Source: a virus
Lineage: Duplodnaviria; Heunggongvirae; Uroviricota; Caudoviricetes
Strand: one strand, 5' to 3'
Virus record (IMG/VR): IMGVR_UViG_2695420382_000017
Length of the DNA stretch: 6,778 bases
The position numbers were made by a program, and so were the translations under genes. The notes beneath the pieces are model-generated. The model saw only the letters and a program-made list of their open reading frames with translations, had not been told where the DNA came from and did not search any database. Positions 2,679 through 6,439 of the stretch are shown one piece after another; the stretch's first letter is position 1; every line of letters starts with the position of its first letter.

Positions 2679-2872
2679 GAATCCTCCCGGCCGGGATAAT
2701 ATTGTGAGTAAAATAAGGAGCGGGCTGAAGTCCGGAAGTTACAGGACAATGGCAGAAGAGAGACGACAGCCCGCAATTCGAAAAAGACCGCGCAGTTGCG
2801 CAGAGTGATTACTATGGGGTATTATTCGCCAGCTGAAATATTACTTCACGTTTTATTGTTTATTCCTTGCCG

Positions 2873-2900
2873 CCCGCGTCTCCCAGCGCGGGCTTTTTTT
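2873..2900 (+). terminator. Rho-independent terminator, plus strand
   Basis: GCCCGCG-TCTCCCAG-CGCGGGC stem-loop followed by TTTTTTT on the plus strand. Confidence 0.5.
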
Positions 2901-2908
2901 GCCCACAA

Positions 2909-2929
2909 GAAAACCCCTCCGGAGAGGGG
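2909..2929 (-). terminator. Rho-independent terminator, minus strand, formed by the hairpin at the edge of repeat copy A
   Basis: CCCCTC-CGGA-GAGGGG hairpin; on the minus strand it is followed by TTTTCTTGTG. It is convergent with the plus-strand terminator at 2873-2900. Confidence 0.45.
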
Positions 2930-3140
2930 CTAAAGCCGCGTATCTGTATCATCATGCACATGGTGCCGGGTGCCTCCCGGTGAGTTCAGCCCGGTGCCAC
3001 TAAACCCGCGTCATTCTCGTTTTGATAATCAGAGATTATACCGTCACCAGTCGCCCCTCCGCTCAGGGGGATTCACCATGCGAAATTTTTTTAACAAATG
3101 CCCAGTCTGACAGGCAACTGTCAACTTACTGAATTGTGAG
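2914..3140. repeat. ~210-bp noncoding repeat module, copy A (diverged, roughly 70-75 percent identical to copies B and C)
   Basis: Shares with B and C the blocks CCCCTCCGGAGAGGGGCT, CATGGTGCCGGGTGCCTCCCGGTGA-TTCAG, CGCCCCTCCGC-CAGGGGGATTCACCATGC, TTTAACAAA, CAACTGTCAAC and CTGAATTGTGA, separated by diverged spacers with indels. Confidence 0.7.
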
Positions 3141-3176
3141 CAACATAGCATTTAACGGGGAACCTGTTTTCTGCAG

Positions 3177-3204
3177 TAAAAAGGCCCACCGGAGCGGATG
3201 GGCC
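3177..3204 (-). terminator. Rho-independent terminator, minus strand
   Basis: Minus strand reads GGCCCATCCGCTCCGGTGGGCC (GC-rich stem-loop) followed by TTTTTA. Confidence 0.5.
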
Positions 3205-3330
3205 TGGAAGGATAGCGGTCATGTGATGCCGGTTTCCCGGTAACTCAGCACCGGTATCTGAGTCAACGTTTTCTCTACTGGGTCATTTCCGATACGCCCT
3301 GCCTGCTGACAGGCTTTCATCACATCTGAA

Positions 3331-3345
3331 AATATAGCACCCTGA
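3331..3345 (-). promoter_or_regulatory. Candidate sigma70 promoter with extended -10 (TGcTATATT) on the minus strand
   Basis: Minus strand reads GTGCTATATT (TG plus TATATT) at plus 3340..3331; the -35 is weak. Prediction by eye only. Confidence 0.25.
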
Positions 3346-3399
3346 CTGATACTGTAGTACCTAAGGTTCCAGAAACTGTGATGTATCCGGCACAGAAAA

Positions 3400-3608
3400 G
3401 CCCCTCCGGAGAGGGCTGGAGAGTGGCGCTATGTGCCATTGCATGATGCCGGGTGCCTCCCGGTGAATTCAGTACCAGCACCTGAATCCGCGATTATCCC
3501 ATATACCTACTCGCTGATTGCCCCTCCGCACAGGGGGATTCACCATGCCAGTTTCTTTTAACAAACTCCCCGCAAAACAGACAACTGTCAACCGTCTGAA
3601 TTGTGAAG
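3400..3608. repeat. ~210-bp noncoding repeat module, copy B (about 97 percent identical to copy C); distal end truncated by or abutting the IS1 remnant
   Basis: Near-identical to 5675-5884, differing by 1 indel and about 4 substitutions. Begins with hairpin GCCCCTCCGGAGAGGGC and ends CTGAATTGTGAAG, directly joined to internal IS1 sequence. Confidence 0.85.
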
Positions 3609-3946
3609 CCAGCGCTGGCGCGATTTAGCCCCGACATAGCCCCACTGTTCGTCCATTTCCGCGCAGACGATGACGTCACTGCCCGGCTGTATGCGCGAGG
3701 TTACCGACTGCGGCCTGAGTTTTTTAAGTGACGTAAAATCGTGTTGAGGCCAACGCCCATAATGCGTGCAGTTGCCATGTTTTACGGCAGTGAGAGCAGA
3801 GATAGCGCTGATGTCCGGCAGTGCTTTTGCCGTTACGCACCACCCCGTCAGTAGCTGAACAGGAGGGACAGCTGATAGAAACAGAAGCCACTGGAGCACC
3901 TCAAAAACACCATCATACACTAAATCAGTAAGTTGGCAGCATCACC
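3609..3946 (-). mobile_element. IS1 remnant: left inverted repeat plus insA-proximal ~340 bp, truncated internally
   Basis: Minus strand begins GGTGATGCTGCCAACTTACTGAT (IS1 terminal inverted repeat) at 3946 and continues with IS1 insA-region sequence. Relative to canonical IS1 as recalled from memory there appears to be an ~85-bp internal deletion. The element ends at an internal IS1 position at ~3609 with no right end. Confidence 0.8.
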
Positions 3947-4018
3947 CGCCTTGAGCGAGATATATTAAAAAAAGCAACAGCGTATTTTGCACAGGAGTCG
4001 CTGAAAAATACGCGTTAA
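3947..4018 (+). pseudogene. IS3-family orfA, C-terminal fragment (5' end removed by the IS1 insertion)
   Basis: Frame encodes the typical OrfA C-terminus DILKKATAYFA with a stop at 4016-4018; there is no start codon because the element is truncated at 3947. Confidence 0.6.
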
Positions 4019-4053
4019 TCGAACAATGGCGACAACAATTTCCCATTGAAGCG

Positions 4054-4872
4054 ATGTGTCAGGTATTTGGTGTATCCAGGAGCGGTTATTACAACTGGGT
4101 ACAGCATGAACCCTCAGACAGAAAACAAAGTGATGAGCGGCTAAAACTGGAGATTAAGGTGGCACATATCCGCACTCGCGAAACATATGGAACCCGGCGG
4201 CTCCAGACGGAGCTGGCAGAGAATGGCATCATCGTTGGTCGTGACCGACTGGCACGTCTTCGTAAGGAGCTAAGGCTACGCTGTAAGCAGAAACGCAAGT
4301 TCAGAGCGACTACGAACTCGAACCACAATCTGCCAGTTGCGCCAAATCTGCTGAACCAGACGTTCGCTCCTACAGCACCAAATCAGGTCTGGGTGGCGGA
4401 CCTGACGTATGTTGCCACACAGGAGGGATGGTTGTACCTCGCTGGCATCAAAGATGTTTATACGTGCGAAATTGTCGGCTACGCCATGGGAGAGCGCATG
4501 ACAAAAGAGCTGACAGGTAAAGCCCTGTTTATGGCGCTCAGGAGCCAGCGCCCACCTGCCGGGCTAATCCACCACTCTGATCGAGGTTCACAGTACTGCG
4601 CATACGATTACCGGGTCATACAGGAGCAGTCTGGTCTGAAAACATCAATGTCGCGTAAAGGTAACTGTTACGACAACGCTCCGATGGAAAGCTTCTGGGG
4701 AACGCTGAAAAATGAGAGCCTGAGCCACTATCGTTTTAATAACCGGGATGAAGCCATCTCAGTAATACGGGAATACATTGAGATTTTCTACAATCGTCAG
4801 CGTCGTCACTCTCGTCTGGGGAATATCTCCCCGGCAGCCTTCAGGGAAAAATATCATCAGATGGCTGCTTAA
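4054..4872 (+). CDS. IS3-family transposase OrfB (DDE integrase-type catalytic domain), 272 aa from the first ATG; normally expressed as an OrfAB fusion by -1 frameshifting
   Basis: Translation contains hallmark IS3-family OrfB segments (NQVWVADLTYV, HHSDRGSQY, NCYDNAPMESFW, YNRQRRHSRLG), consistent with the DDE catalytic triad region. Confidence 0.9.
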   Translation: MCQVFGVSRSGYYNWVQHEPSDRKQSDERLKLEIKVAHIRTRETYGTRRLQTELAENGIIVGRDRLARLRKELRLRCKQKRKFRATTNSNHNLPVAPNLLNQTFAPTAPNQVWVADLTYVATQEGWLYLAGIKDVYTCEIVGYAMGERMTKELTGKALFMALRSQRPPAGLIHHSDRGSQYCAYDYRVIQEQSGLKTSMSRKGNCYDNAPMESFWGTLKNESLSHYRFNNRDEAISVIREYIEIFYNRQRRHSRLGNISPAAFREKYHQMAA

Positions 4873-4913
4873 AAAAAGAACAAATGGTAGTGTCCGCTAT
4901 TGCCAGTACACCT

Positions 4914-5042
4914 CAGGGTATAAGGGGTTATGGCCACCGGACTACCAAACGGCTGCCAGCCCTCTTTCAGTTTATGTGTCAGCTTTTCCGCAAGATCTGA
5001 CGGCGGCGCCGCCCTGACAACATCATAGTGTTTAAATGCCAT
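4914..5042 (-). pseudogene. nanS-p paralog, N-terminal 43 codons only, disrupted by the IS3-family insertion
   Basis: Minus-strand translation MAFKHYDVVRAAPPSDLAEKLTHKLKEGWQPFGSPVAITPYTL matches the first 43 residues of the intact NanS-p with 4 differences (about 90 percent nucleotide identity by eye), then reads into the IS right end. The upstream leader differs from that of the intact copy. Confidence 0.85.
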
Positions 5043-5235
5043 GGTTCTTTCCACCATCTGAAAAATAATTCTTTAAAATACCTGACATGTAATACAGAAA
5101 AAACACAAAACCATACCTTAAATAAAAACCTGATTATCAAGCAGATATGCATGGATAAACTACAAGACGAGATATAAACCACCCTGCATTTAAATAAACA
5201 ATAAACAACATCAGAAAAATAATTCTGCTCTATGG

Positions 5236-5262
5236 TTTACATTCAAAAATATCATTTATACT
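5236..5262 (+). promoter_or_regulatory. Candidate sigma70 promoter (TTTACA, 15-nt spacer, TATACT) for the ORF at 5303
   Basis: Sequence read by eye in an AT-rich region; spacer is suboptimal at 15 nt. Confidence 0.3.
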
Positions 5263-5302
5263 TTTCAGAACATCACCAGCAAGGCATAAACAAGGAAACT
5301 AA

Positions 5303-5638
5303 ATGAAGTGGATTGTGATTGATACAGTTATCCAGCCATCATGCGGAATATCTTTTTCAGTCATATGGAGTAAAATAAAATTAATAATCTGGTATCAATC
5401 GGATGCTTTCTTACCTCCTGAAAGTATATTTACACTGACTCACACAGGCATCATGCTCAATAACAAAGTGCTACCTGTAACCATTTACAACGTAGTACCA
5501 TTCAATAAAACATTCTGGAATTTAATCAAAAACAGCCAGGAATGCCCTACAAATACAGATAACGTATTGAATGAATGCTTTAATAACCGTTGCACTCTGC
5601 AAATATGTCCTTATGGACTAAAACAACAAAGTCCATAA
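5303..5638 (+). CDS. Hypothetical protein, 111 aa, AT-rich orphan moron ORF, convergent with the phage late operon
   Basis: Strong Shine-Dalgarno (AAGGA, ~6-nt spacer) before the ATG and a candidate promoter upstream. The region is AT-rich by eye (not counted). Five Cys residues. No family recognised. The 3' end is covered by an 11-bp perfect inverted repeat. Confidence 0.5.
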
Positions 5639-5674
5639 GGAGTTTACTCACATCTGACAAAATCAATATAAACA

Positions 5675-5697
5675 GCCCCTCCGGAGAGGGGCTGGAG
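5675..5697 (-). terminator. Candidate rho-independent terminator (minus strand) at the end of repeat copy C
   Basis: GC-rich 7-8 bp stem with CGGA loop; the downstream minus-strand sequence is T-rich but interrupted. Confidence 0.4.
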
Positions 5698-5884
5698 AGT
5701 GGCGCTATGTGCCATTGCATGGTGCCGGGTGCCTCCCGGTGAATTCAGTACCAGCACCTGAATCCGCGATTATCCCATATACCTACTCGCTGATTGCCCC
5801 TCCGCACAGGGGGATTCACCATGCCAGTTTCTTTTAACAAACTCCCCGCAAACCAGACAACAGTCAACCGCCTGAATTGTGAAG
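5675..5884. repeat. ~210-bp noncoding repeat module, copy C (complete)
   Basis: Near-identical to copy B and clearly related to copy A. On the minus strand it ends in hairpin GCCCCTCTCCGGAGGGGC followed by the T-rich GTTTATATTGATTTTG. Confidence 0.85.
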
Positions 5885-5918: not shown

Positions 5919-6005
5919 CTAACAGTCTGGCGTTTTCTTTTTCAGCAACGGGAAAGCAACAACCACCACACCCGCCACCAGCACACCGTCAGCCAGCACT
6001 GACAT
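5919..6005 (-). CDS. Candidate small hydrophobic peptide (28 aa: MSVLADGVLVAGVVVVAFPLLKKKTPDC); speculative
   Basis: ATG-initiated small ORF encoding one predicted TM-like segment followed by KKK; only a weak GGA Shine-Dalgarno-like element. The same DNA is a CA-rich tract on the plus strand, so the ORF may be coincidental. Confidence 0.15.
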   Translation of the reverse strand: MSVLADGVLVAGVVVVAFPLLKKKTPDC

Positions 6006-6085
6006 TATCCGGCTGCTGCAATGCCATTCACAAAAACAGTAAGCAATCACTTTTTACCGTAACAGGTGATAATCCAGATATGTAT

Positions 6086-6439
6086 CTACCCCAGATGAGT
6101 AATCCGAAGTTCATCCATACCACAGGTCCTGGCTATTCTGTTGTACTCCTGAACAAGAGCAAATAATTCTGAATTAGCAACCATGAACTCATCGCAAACC
6201 CTCTGTATAGCATCACTATTCAGAATAATAACGTCTCTTCCCGAAAGACGATCAGGAGTACAGAACAAAACTGTCAAACGGCTGAAGGCCTTTGCTCGTG
6301 CTGCATTGACTATATCAATACGCTGCCTAAGGATGAAACACCCCGACGCCTCATCAATATTCACTCTACCCACACCATATGAATGATAAATATTTAATGC
6401 TGAAAAAACCATTAGACCGTATAACAAACACTCAATCAA
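6086..6439 (-). CDS. Hypothetical ORF, 117 aa, at the position occupied by stxAB in Stx phages; doubtful
   Basis: Open frame in late-operon orientation just downstream of the tRNAs, but it starts with TTG and has no recognisable Shine-Dalgarno, and no family is recognised. May be a decayed or noncoding region. Confidence 0.2.
   Translation of the reverse strand: MIECLLYGLMVFSALNIYHSYGVGRVNIDEASGCFILRQRIDIVNAARAKAFSRLTVLFCTPDRLSGRDVIILNSDAIQRVCDEFMVANSELFALVQEYNRIARTCGMDELRITHLG

Follow-up and report, generated by a model that had tools for sequence, protein, structure and literature searches.

An AT-rich block opposing the late genes of a chimeric lambdoid region carries iraL, very probably encoding an RssB anti-adaptor of the IraM family

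Introduction

IraL (c1429) of uropathogenic Escherichia coli CFT073 was described by Hryckowian et al. in 2014 (PMC4045071). [quoted passage not shown] The start of the iraL mRNA was mapped by 5'RACE on log-phase CFT073 cells, sigma-70 -35 and -10 elements were predicted upstream of the mapped start, and a fragment spanning positions -100 to +33 sufficed for complementation (PMC4045071). In addition, RNA sequencing showed iraL (c1429) to be up by 1.6 log2 at 37°C (PMC12890032), and a fur mutant shows higher iraL expression (PMC7157518).

K-12 IraM (YcgW/ElbA; structure 8TWD, with RssB) shares with IraL the family NF007393, a PmrD-like barrel, the RssB anti-adaptor function, and a tail motif of the form C-x10-C-x4-C-x4-C. 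The iraM gene lies just outside e14, adjoining ycgX, and is induced by Mg2+ starvation in a manner tied to PhoP/Q, whereas iraL is expressed in log phase. Moreover, IraM binds both RssB domains, in contrast to IraL, which bound only the N-terminal domain in two-hybrid assays, and IraL has four additional C-terminal residues (QQSP). RssC of Salmonella, an IraM-like anti-adaptor, is the third member of the iraL-iraM-rssC family; rssC was found only in Salmonella and is 49.3% identical to iraL (PMC4045071). A related fold, a small antiparallel beta-barrel plus helix, occurs in PmrD (4HN7, 2JSO, and 2RQX; TM score of 0.69 to 0.73 to IraL). Proteins of the PmrD and IraM/IraL types each bind a receiver domain and raise net phosphorylation, but the partner of PmrD is PmrA rather than RssB, and PmrD is not known to carry the four-cysteine tail.

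In terms of position, the nearest likeness to iraL is the AsxR anti-sRNA locus of Stx2 phage 933W/Sp5 (Rfam RF02703), which sits where iraL does, with the STnc100 terminator on one side and the start of nanS-p on the other. Like iraL, AsxR is a lysogen-expressed regulator oriented against late transcription. However, AsxR is a 53-nt RNA of unrelated sequence, and its likeness to the protein gene iraL is positional only. The classical lambdoid morons bor, lom, and stx are, like iraL, separate cargo units of atypical composition that sit between conserved phage genes and bring their own expression signals. Among these, bor is counter-oriented and lysogen expressed, as is iraL, while stx is the opposite, being co-oriented with the late operon and largely dependent on it.

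Results

Context and edges of the AT-rich block

The window, i.e., the whole 6,778-nt stretch of DNA that was analyzed, contains a 111-codon gene within a sharply bounded AT-rich block. The block, its gene, and its two flanks are as follows.

5044 to 5670, no strand assigned: AT-rich iraL moron block, taking up all the space that separates the nanS-p start codon from the STnc100 terminator (self-BLAST, GC content)
5303 to 5638, + strand: iraL coding sequence, 111 amino acids, very probably an RssB anti-adaptor of the IraM family (CFT073 identity, NF007393, 8twd_A, AF2 model, dN/dS)
4913 to 5042, - strand: left flank, 5' stub of nanS-p (DUF1737) of approximately 43 codons, cut by an IS3-family element (Pfam DUF1737, E value of 1.5e-15)
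5664 to 5853, - strand: right flank, STnc100 sRNA gene, co-oriented with late transcription (Rfam RF02076, 132.4 bits versus a gathering threshold of 47)

The GC content of the block is 32.2% (29.3% upstream of the gene, positions 5044 to 5302, and 34.8% in the coding sequence), whereas the window outside the block has 50.7% and nanS-p 53.6%. Likewise, GC3 is 34% in iraL versus 56% in nanS-p. Both edges are sharp. In a self-BLAST of the window, positions 2549 to 2679 match 4913 to 5043, and 3396 to 3608 match 5671 to 5884. Homology to the other nanS-p copy thus ends at 5043, 1 base beyond the start codon, and homology to the other STnc100 copy begins at 5671. The contrast in composition pointed out in the earlier note is therefore real and has abrupt limits.

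The same flanks surround the iraL block in CFT073, strain 142, FDAARGOS_536, and phage vB_EcoS-640R1. In CFT073, the neighbors follow in the same order, namely, Q, tRNAs, DUF3927, STnc100, iraL, and then the DUF1737 stub. Beyond this stub the two loci differ: the window continues with a truncated IS3-family element, an IS1 fragment, and a second late-region segment, whereas CFT073 continues directly with a small ORF and the holin gene. The stub is 91.6% identical to the beginning of the full nanS-p (2549 to 2679), and a DUF1737 stub adjoining iraL, annotated as incomplete and without its C terminus, is also present in CFT073 and FDAARGOS_536. The truncated IS3-family element and IS1 fragment begin 130 bp from the nanS-p start codon. 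No complete E. coli genome holds at least 80% of the window in one place or shows its exact arrangement, and pieces 100% identical to the window are found in other arrangements on draft contigs GCA_001252175, GCA_001253895, GCA_001256715, and GCA_001252135. The late region of the window is chimeric.

The second STnc100-to-nanS-p gap of the window (2679 to 2900) and the corresponding gap of 933W are without iraL. An Rfam search across the window gave no RNA family within 5044 to 5663. Two small ORFs upstream of iraL, at 5028 to 5177 (+) and 4979 to 5182 (-), had no support and were set aside.

Identity of the gene

The ORF is intact, running from an ATG at 5303 to a TAA at 5636 to 5638, and its 111-amino-acid product contains five cysteines (positions 14, 81, 92, 97, and 102), just as first read. 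This product is 100% identical to WP_000871291.1, IraL (c1429) of CFT073, which is encoded at 1343465 to 1343800 within a prophage adjoining potC, and it equals the proteins annotated as WP_000871291.1 at two loci of our comparison (L001 and L004). At the nucleotide level, the coding sequence does not differ from that of CFT073 at any position. Orthologues of iraL have been defined by at least 95% identity to the CFT073 gene across the whole coding sequence (PMC4045071). The window gene falls within this definition, as opposed to K-12 iraM, with which it shares 70.6% nucleotide identity. We conclude that the feature is almost certainly iraL, a prophage-borne paralogue of iraM, and that its product very probably is an RssB anti-adaptor.

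The gene lies on the + strand, and the tRNAs, STnc100, nanS-p, holin, and DUF1327 genes all lie on the - strand, placing iraL head-on to late transcription, as the earlier note had stated. Its description there as a moron with its own promoter also fits: the block is self-contained, counter-oriented cargo in the late region of a lambdoid prophage, with promoter hexamers equal to those of the RACE-mapped CFT073 promoter.

Spread, selection, and position

Among 5,426 complete E. coli genomes, the 630-bp block is present at 90% identity or higher in 1,446, and iraM is present in 3,937. The dN/dS ratio of iraL versus K-12 iraM is 0.155, which shows purifying selection; together with its spread, this speaks against a reading frame that arose by chance. 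Homologues with a conserved frame are present in other genomes, and the frame is generally undisrupted in close relatives. Within the coding sequence, the 81 nt from 5440 to 5520, which span the sole IS1 insertion site seen, are unbroken in 1,445 of the 1,446 genomes. The one IS1-split copy, in ST131 strain AR_0058, shows that individual iraL copies can be lost.

In every context examined, iraL is located between STnc100 and nanS-p. The proposal that this is the cargo hotspot that carries stx in Stx phages is correct on a coarse scale, but the exact slot differs. In 933W, the tRNAs and STnc100 flank stx2AB, while iraL lies on the far side of STnc100, in the AsxR gap. The STnc100-to-nanS-p gaps contain AsxR in 933W, and an unnamed terminator-bearing element (approximately 2812 to 2900) and iraL (5044 to 5670) in the window.

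The gene is also found in four phage records named vB_EcoS. Its presence on inducible siphophage genomes and full-length lambdoid prophages is in line with a mainly phage-side selected role, in which raised sigma-S damps spontaneous induction or affects superinfection and iraL would be an accessory for lysogeny maintenance or defense. The head-on orientation, by which iraL would be shut off at induction, and the presence of other lysogen-expressed regulators such as AsxR in the same slot point the same way. On the other hand, a PADLOC search gave no defense-system match for iraL, and none of the experiments retrieved ties IraL to how often prophages are induced or to resistance against phages. 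That this role is the main one is unlikely. It is compatible with the RssB mechanism, to which it adds only a beneficiary.

Promoter, transcription start, and ribosome binding

The following expression signals precede the almost certain iraL gene.

5236 to 5241, + strand: -35 hexamer TTTACA of the iraL promoter, identical to CFT073
5257 to 5262, + strand: -10 hexamer TATACT, read from the sequence and the same in all four aligned loci
5270, + strand: transcription start site, as placed by alignment with the 5'RACE end of CFT073; ACATCACCAGCAAGGCATAAACAAGGAAACCA aligns to 5270 to 5301
5292 to 5297, + strand: Shine-Dalgarno sequence AAGGAA, read from the sequence, 6 nt before the ATG

The 5'RACE end of the CFT073 iraL mRNA (ACATCACCAGCAAGG...) corresponds to position 5270, 7 nt beyond the -10 hexamer, and ACATCACCAGCAAGGCATAAACAAGGAAACCA differs from the window at one position between 5270 and 5301 (T for C at 5300). 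The sigma-70 promoter suggested at 5236 to 5262 is therefore borne out by its counterpart in CFT073. A scan of the window for the sigma-70 consensus, with spacers of 16 to 18 nt, did not flag this promoter because its 15-nt spacer is below 16 nt. The three other sites flagged by the scan are at chance level (3.3 expected). The Shine-Dalgarno sequence, AAGGA(A), is present as described but is good rather than exceptional. Three of the four aligned loci keep it, and phage 640R1 carries a G instead of an A at position 5298, immediately 3' of it. The same phage has TTTATA in place of TTTACA at -35, consistent, we infer, with the -35 point mutation reported for iraL2 of JJ1886 (PMC4045071).

Over approximately 670 nt (5030 to 5700), the window differs from CFT073 at four positions: 5055, 5112, 5269 (-1; A for G), and 5300 (+31, between the Shine-Dalgarno sequence and the ATG; T for C). 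Only the latter two fall in the -100 to +33 region, and the promoter and upstream region match CFT073 under a criterion of at least 96% identity. Both A at -1 and T at +31 are also carried by strain 142 and phage 640R1 and are thus common alleles.

These data bear on whether the copy in the window is a silent remnant, intact in sequence and devoid of expression or effect, for instance through full H-NS silencing or the changes at -1 and +31. Such a reading could draw on the truncated IS3-family element and IS1 fragment abutting the nanS-p stub in a chimeric late region, on the 29% GC content upstream, on the two changes near the start site and Shine-Dalgarno sequence, and on the IS1-split copy of AR_0058. 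Nevertheless, the coding sequence, the promoter hexamers, and the complementing -100 to +33 region are intact, with two differences from CFT073 that are both common alleles. The S. sonnei genome is similarly IS-rich. Deletion of iraL in Shigella sonnei lowers log-phase sigma-S (PMC4045071). Transcription is documented in the CFT073 lysogen by 5'RACE and phenotypes (PMC4045071) and by RNA sequencing (PMC12890032). A silent remnant is consequently unlikely.

Upstream of the start site, one further regulatory element was considered.

5191 to 5207, - strand: PhoP-box-like sequence TGTTTA-TTGTT-TATTTA, one mismatch, -79 to -63 from the start (pattern search)

This pattern gives 24 matches across the whole window versus 16.3 ± 4.1 expected, which is not above chance, and the PhoP-box-like sequence is a lead only. 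A Fur box was considered because iraL is up in the fur mutant; by eye there is only a weak resemblance, around GAAAAATAATTCT.

The 3' end of iraL

Two hairpins lie at the end of the gene.

5608 to 5641, + strand: perfect 12-bp hairpin with a 10-nt loop across the last codons and stop codon (inverted repeat I1)
5673 to 5694, no strand assigned: GC-rich hairpin that serves STnc100 as its intrinsic - strand terminator, located 34 nt beyond the stop codon of iraL (terminator scan, -)

The first hairpin appears in both the minimum free energy and centroid folds of 5596 to 5705 (z = -5.4), and in strain 142 an A-to-G change at 5617 keeps the pairing as G-U. It is possibly a 3' stabilizer of the mRNA or a terminator stem. 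At the second hairpin, the + strand folds into the same stem as the - strand terminator, and this likely also serves as the end point of iraL transcripts. The terminator scan scored on the - strand only, with no U-tract on the + strand at either 5608 to 5641 or 5673 to 5694.

Family and fold of the product

The IraL product matches the NCBIfam model NF007393, "anti-adapter protein IraM" (162 bits, where the cutoff is 121; E value of 4.7e-48), residues 1 to 110 aligning to profile positions 1 to 113 of 114. IraM (8twd_A) was matched in a search of the PDB (E value of 9e-32). An AF2 model, confident over residues 1 to 78 (block pLDDT of 76 to 94 across residues 1 to 80), superimposes on 8twd_A with a TM score of 0.90 and an rmsd of 1.3 Å over 78 columns (Foldseek). 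K-12 IraM is 59.5% identical to IraL, compared to a published figure of 58.9% (PMC4045071). The DNA homology between the two genes is confined to 5301 to 5622 (70.6% nucleotide identity) and ends at the edges of the coding sequence, implying that their promoters are unrelated; indeed, the iraL upstream region is unrelated to that of iraM. Near K-12 iraM, no homology to STnc100, nanS, or DUF3927 was found, and no flanks are shared with iraL. A protein search for relatives yielded 20 clusters, with all species-named ones being Escherichia; RssC was not retrieved.

The residues of IraM that contact RssB in the crystal structure form three clusters (I4, I6, W22, K26, and I42; T13, C14, F18, W30, and L75; I61, Y62, H63, and I64). 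Ten of these 14 residues are identical in IraL, and the others are changed as T13S, L75I, H63N, and I64V. The near-complete match at the residues that touch the C-terminal domain of RssB does not sit easily with the two-hybrid result, in which only the N-terminal domain was bound. Toward the C terminus, C81, P82, C92, C97, I101, C102, P103, and G105 are invariant in all 16 aligned family members. The resulting motif, C81-P-x9-C92-x4-C97-x3-I-C102-P-x-G, is derived from our own alignment and not from a published criterion. This four-cysteine tail is missing from the crystal construct and has been described as less conserved and flexible.

The fold also brings PmrD into consideration. IraL could be a connector of the PmrD type that shields PmrA or another phosphorylated response regulator in place of RssB, given that PmrD structures resemble the model (TM scores of 0.73 for 4hn7, 0.70 for 2jso, and 0.69 for 2rqx), that precomputed protein-collection labels place PF11183 (PmrD) on all relatives but one, and that net phosphorylation rises for RssB with IraM just as it does for PmrA with PmrD. 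This is very improbable, since sequence identity is 14 to 21% to the PmrD structures versus 65% to IraM over aligned residues, the RssB-contact residues of IraM are conserved, and the identical CFT073 protein copurifies with RssB and alters sigma-S stability, with a published phenotype that depends on rssB.

The sequence-only claim of an orphan without a recognized family does not hold. In a hmmscan against Pfam-A, neither IraL nor K-12 IraM nor two further relatives gave a match, even at E values of up to 10. Since K-12 IraM was missed as well, this silence is uninformative on IraL, and we judge it to be a gap in the library copy used, because precomputed PF11183 labels exist. A Pfam copy without a model that detects K-12 IraM may also explain the impression of no recognized family. 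The idea of a genuine orphan, a lysogenic-conversion gene with neither family nor function known, could point to the empty Pfam-A and PADLOC searches and to phrog_4407 (matching IraL across its full length and listed in PHROGs as unknown function). It is refuted for all practical purposes by NF007393 above its cutoff, by IraM in the PDB, by the RefSeq label of anti-adapter protein in 30 of the 30 matches listed, and by complete identity to the characterized IraL, WP_000871291.1.

Discussion

An RssB anti-adaptor of the IraM family is thus the reading that best describes the window gene, and a mechanism can be proposed from its signals and its CFT073 counterpart. With a sigma-70 promoter of its own, iraL would be transcribed separately from the Q-dependent late operon and directly against it, so that the protein would be made in the lysogen during ordinary growth. 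The 111-amino-acid product is predicted to consist of a PmrD-like beta-barrel (residues 1 to 78) and a cysteine-rich tail. It would bind RssB, the response-regulator-like adaptor, which could then no longer pass sigma-S (RpoS) to the ClpXP protease. With RssB blocked, sigma-S would be stable, and the general stress regulon would be partly on in log phase. The copy in the present IS-scarred prophage is presumably expressed, and the upstream region of 29% GC probably makes iraL subject to modulation by H-NS or temperature. After induction, late transcription would collide with that of iraL and silence it.

Two further readings can be put forward. The gap between STnc100 and nanS-p may be a dedicated slot in lambdoid late regions for counter-oriented, lysogen-expressed regulators. 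If so, late transcription that is antiterminated by Q and runs head-on into the cargo would serve as an inbuilt off switch for it at induction. The invariant four-cysteine tail may work as a sensor module for metals or redox state, controlling how stable or how active IraL and IraM are. Taken together, the two are tentative and would have to be called doubtful.

A 2014 publication already covered the gene and its promoter, how it affects sigma-S by way of RssB, and how it is distributed in E. coli and Shigella; the observation is real but ordinary, because iraL was already characterized. This analysis corrects the orphan label, fixes the edges of the moron to the base, and updates its prevalence. 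It also shows that the context described as the CFT073 "potB island" is a complete lambdoid prophage, that the genomes of induced phages carry iraL, and that iraL fills the AsxR gap of Stx2 phages and not the stx slot. As already noted in the literature, a gene that phages deliver and that raises the general stress response during growth is relevant to how well uropathogenic E. coli and Shigella fare in their niches.

The AT-rich block of the late region carries iraL

The window consists of lambdoid prophage late-region DNA, to be read on the minus strand except for one block transcribed in the opposite direction.

Features of the window (coordinates, strand, identity)
6778-6730, minus: tRNA, partial
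6626-6550, minus: tRNA-Arg(tct)
6439-6086, minus: ORF of 117 codons
6050-5919, minus: DUF3927 mini-protein
5853-5664, minus: STnc100 sRNA gene
5043-5672, plus (opposite strand): AT-rich block with iraL, the finding
5042-4913, minus: 5' stub of nanS-p, DUF1737
~3948-4912: truncated IS3-family element, orfB at 4054-4872
~3609-3947: presumed IS1 fragment
3577-3388 and 3110-2901, minus: two further STnc100 copies; 3349-3176, minus: one weak copy
2678-825, minus: nanS-p, full length
752-459, minus: holin
454-140, minus: DUF1327

The GC content of 5044-5670 is 32.2%, versus 50.7% in the rest of the window. Self-BLAST places the edges of this block to the base: the match to the second nanS-p copy stops at 5043 and that to the second STnc100 copy begins at 5671. 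The block contains an intact ORF at 5303-5638 (+) encoding 111 amino acids with five cysteines, preceded by a Shine-Dalgarno sequence, AAGGA(A), 6 nt 5' of the ATG. The earlier note had described these features as an orphan moron; the feature is real, its delineation is correct, and the moron interpretation is sound. The gene is no orphan, however. [quoted passage not shown]

The product matches the NCBIfam model NF007393 ("anti-adapter protein IraM") end to end with 162 bits (cutoff, 121 bits), and IraM 8twd_A in the PDB with an E value of 9e-32. The CFT073 homologue, c1429 (PMC12890032), was named IraL and is 58.9% identical to K-12 IraM (Hryckowian et al., mBio 2014, PMC4045071). Between CFT073 and the window, the coding sequence shows zero nucleotide differences and the region 5030-5700 only four, none of which affects the promoter hexamers. 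The 630-bp iraL block is present in 1,446 of 5,426 complete Escherichia coli genomes (RefSeq), annotated as IraM throughout among the matches listed, and four phage records carry the gene under the label "anti-adapter protein." An hmmscan of IraL and K-12 IraM against Pfam-A gave no match, even at E values up to 10, whereas precomputed protein-collection labels assign PF11183 (PmrD) to nearly all family members, a mismatch attributable to the library or its version.

Promoter and flanking elements of iraL

The sigma-70 promoter proposed at 5236-5262 is present (TTTACA, 15 nt, TATACT) but less canonical than "plausible" implied, and a consensus scan allowing spacers of 16 to 18 nt missed it. 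Since the published 5'RACE end (ACATCACCAGCAAGGCATAAACAAGGAAACCA) aligns at 5270-5301, it corresponds to the published iraL promoter. Upstream of it lies a 21-nt direct repeat, identical at 19 of 21 positions (CAnCATCnGAAAAATAATTCT), at 5052-5072 and 5206-5226 (+). The latter copy stops 9 nt short of the -35 hexamer and is invariant in the four aligned loci, while the distal copy varies. Adjoining the repeat is a pattern resembling a PhoP box, TGTTTA-N5-TATTTA, at 5191-5207 (-).

At the other end of the gene, an inverted repeat (5608-5641, +) of 12 perfectly paired bp around a 10-nt loop covers the stop and the codons just before it. Within the right arm lies the Ser-Pro-stop part of QQSP, the residues that IraL has in addition to IraM, and an A-to-G change in strain 142 retains the pair as G-U. 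Transcripts of iraL probably end at this hairpin and at a second one at 5673-5694, although neither has a U-tract on the plus strand.

IraL is a conserved IraM family member

A family search of 5.8 billion proteins returned only 20 clusters, and every species-named one was Escherichia and named IraM. An AlphaFold2 (AF2) model built with 16 family sequences is confident for residues 1 to 78 and poor for the tail. In a Foldseek search, the predicted structure was closest to IraM 8twd_A (TM score, 0.90; RMSD, 1.3 Å), followed by PmrD (TM score, about 0.7; 14 to 21% identity), in agreement with published work that assigned IraM a PmrD-like fold (PMC10844676). Of the 14 RssB-contacting residues in the IraM structure, IraL shares ten, and the remaining positions are T13S, L75I, H63N, and I64V. 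The Nei-Gojobori dN/dS between iraL and K-12 iraM is 0.155, with dS near saturation, a ratio indicating that the iraL frame is under purifying selection.

The IraM protein that was crystallized lacks the tail, which was regarded as flexible and less conserved (PMC10844676). The IraL tail has an AF2 pLDDT below 50. Across 16 aligned family members, residues 81 to 105 (5543-5620) include eight invariant positions (C81, P82, C92, C97, I101, C102, P103, and G105), and C14, unlike the tail cysteines, is variable. The tail may serve in metal or redox binding.

The frame is split in one locus: in the ST131 strain AR_0058 (NZ_CP021689.1, L005 4237-5349), IS1A follows codon 59. An 81-nt probe over this site is uninterrupted in 1,445 of the 1,446 iraL-positive genomes, which implies that AR_0058 also holds an uninterrupted copy of the probed stretch. 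Another ST131 strain, JJ1886, has two iraL copies (PMC4045071).

Homology between iraL and iraM is limited to the coding sequence (5301-5622, 70.6% at the nucleotide level). Their upstream regions are unrelated, which fits the different regulation reported for each gene. K-12-type iraM occurs in 3,937 of 5,426 complete E. coli genomes. In K-12 itself (L003 4414-6108), iraM lies just outside the annotated e14 end, after icdC, and is followed by ymgK, ymgL, and ycgX, the last encoding a DUF1398 protein like the lambdoid prophage genes ybcV and ydfO. Given this position and neighbor, the location of iraM may be not "on e14" but within what is left of a different prophage.

Position of iraL relative to the stx slot

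The "potB genomic island" of CFT073 is a complete lambdoid prophage with its integrase beside potC, in the order integrase, Q, tRNA Ile-Arg-Arg, DUF3927, iraL, DUF1737 stub, lysis genes, and head and tail genes. FDAARGOS_536 and phage vB_EcoS-640R1 likewise have iraL followed by the DUF1737 stub, and in strain 142 iraL lies immediately upstream of a full-length nanS-p.

It had been suggested that iraL occupies the hotspot that carries stx in Stx phages. The late region is indeed the same, but the slot differs. The Stx2 phage 933W has the order tRNAs, stx2AB, STnc100, AsxR (an sRNA on the opposite strand), nanS-p, which puts stx on the tRNA side of STnc100, whereas iraL lies in the STnc100-to-nanS-p gap. 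The position of stx2AB corresponds in the window to the 117-codon ORF and DUF3927, and that of iraL to AsxR, both counter-oriented. The gap may serve as a slot for counter-oriented cargo. The entire gap, native nanS-p leader included, is replaced by iraL.

In the second such gap of the window (2679-2900), the nanS-proximal 125 nt are near-identical to 933W. The distal part (~2812-2900, +) holds a different counter-oriented sRNA-like element, in AsxR-like place and orientation, with a strong intrinsic terminator (stem at 2872-2893, then TTTTTTT). The AsxR and AgvB models did not match this element, the sole match being a sub-threshold one to OmrA-B (25 bits; E = 0.17). It may belong with the prophage sRNAs reported close to esterase genes, of which the Pas sRNAs are an example.

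The AT-rich ORF at 6086-6439 (-) has 117 codons, 108 of them from ATG, with Met10 at 6412 as the likely start. Its PHROGs match is phrog_2873, a family of unknown function (E = 3.8e-70), and it gave no NCBIfam or PADLOC match and no significant Pfam match. CFT073, FDAARGOS_536, strain 142, and AR_0058 all carry it intact, yet RefSeq annotates it in none of the four. The neighboring DUF3927 membrane mini-protein (5919-6050, -; 43 amino acids) matches phrog_1470 (E = 7.8e-13).

Duplication and insertion sequence junction

Three full STnc100 genes (5664-5853, 3388-3577, and 2901-3110, -) score 132, 124, and 161 bits (gathering score, 47), and a degenerate fourth (3176-3349, -) scores 30 bits; all are packed in 3 kb and co-oriented with late transcription. 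Self-BLAST shows 5671-5884 duplicated at 3396-3608 (97%). Between them, 3609-5042 is a chimeric junction that joins the 130-bp nanS-p 5' stub (4913-5042), a truncated, presumably IS600-like IS3-family element (~3948-4912; orfB at 4054-4872, 272 amino acids), and a fragment of ~340 bp (~3609-3947) that we take to be the left end of IS1, with an insA-like ORF at 3724-3891. Beyond it lies a second late-region segment with its own STnc100 copies and full nanS-p. Among the complete E. coli genomes, none has at least 80% of the window at one site and none has this junction arrangement; 100%-identical pieces, differently joined, occur in draft contigs of four assemblies. The truncated IS3-family element and the IS1 fragment suggest an IS-rich background like that of Shigella.

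In several genomes, RefSeq annotates a partial "hypothetical protein" opposite STnc100 (window 5709-5837 and 3433-3561, +; 7667-7792 and 4813-4938 in the iraL loci L001 and L004, respectively). It coincides with 42-amino-acid ORFs inside the STnc100 copies and is probably a spurious call over the RNA gene.

Function and regulation of iraL

For the protein identical to that of the window, RssB copurifies with IraL, and two-hybrid analysis shows interaction with the RssB N-terminal domain (PMC4045071). Deletion of iraL in CFT073 halves the log-phase sigma-S half-life, from ~5 to ~2.5 min, and is complemented by the gene plus a -100 to +33 fragment; in Shigella sonnei, deletion lowers log-phase sigma-S (PMC4045071). 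The iraL mRNA is raised without Fur (PMC7157518) and increases by 1.6 log2 upon a shift to 37°C (PMC12890032). The upstream region, with 29% GC, is likely an H-NS target, which would fit this temperature response. K-12 iraM is repressed by H-NS.

Q-dependent late transcription must cross iraL in antisense on its way to nanS-p and the lysis genes. After induction, this antisense transcription would interfere with iraL expression.
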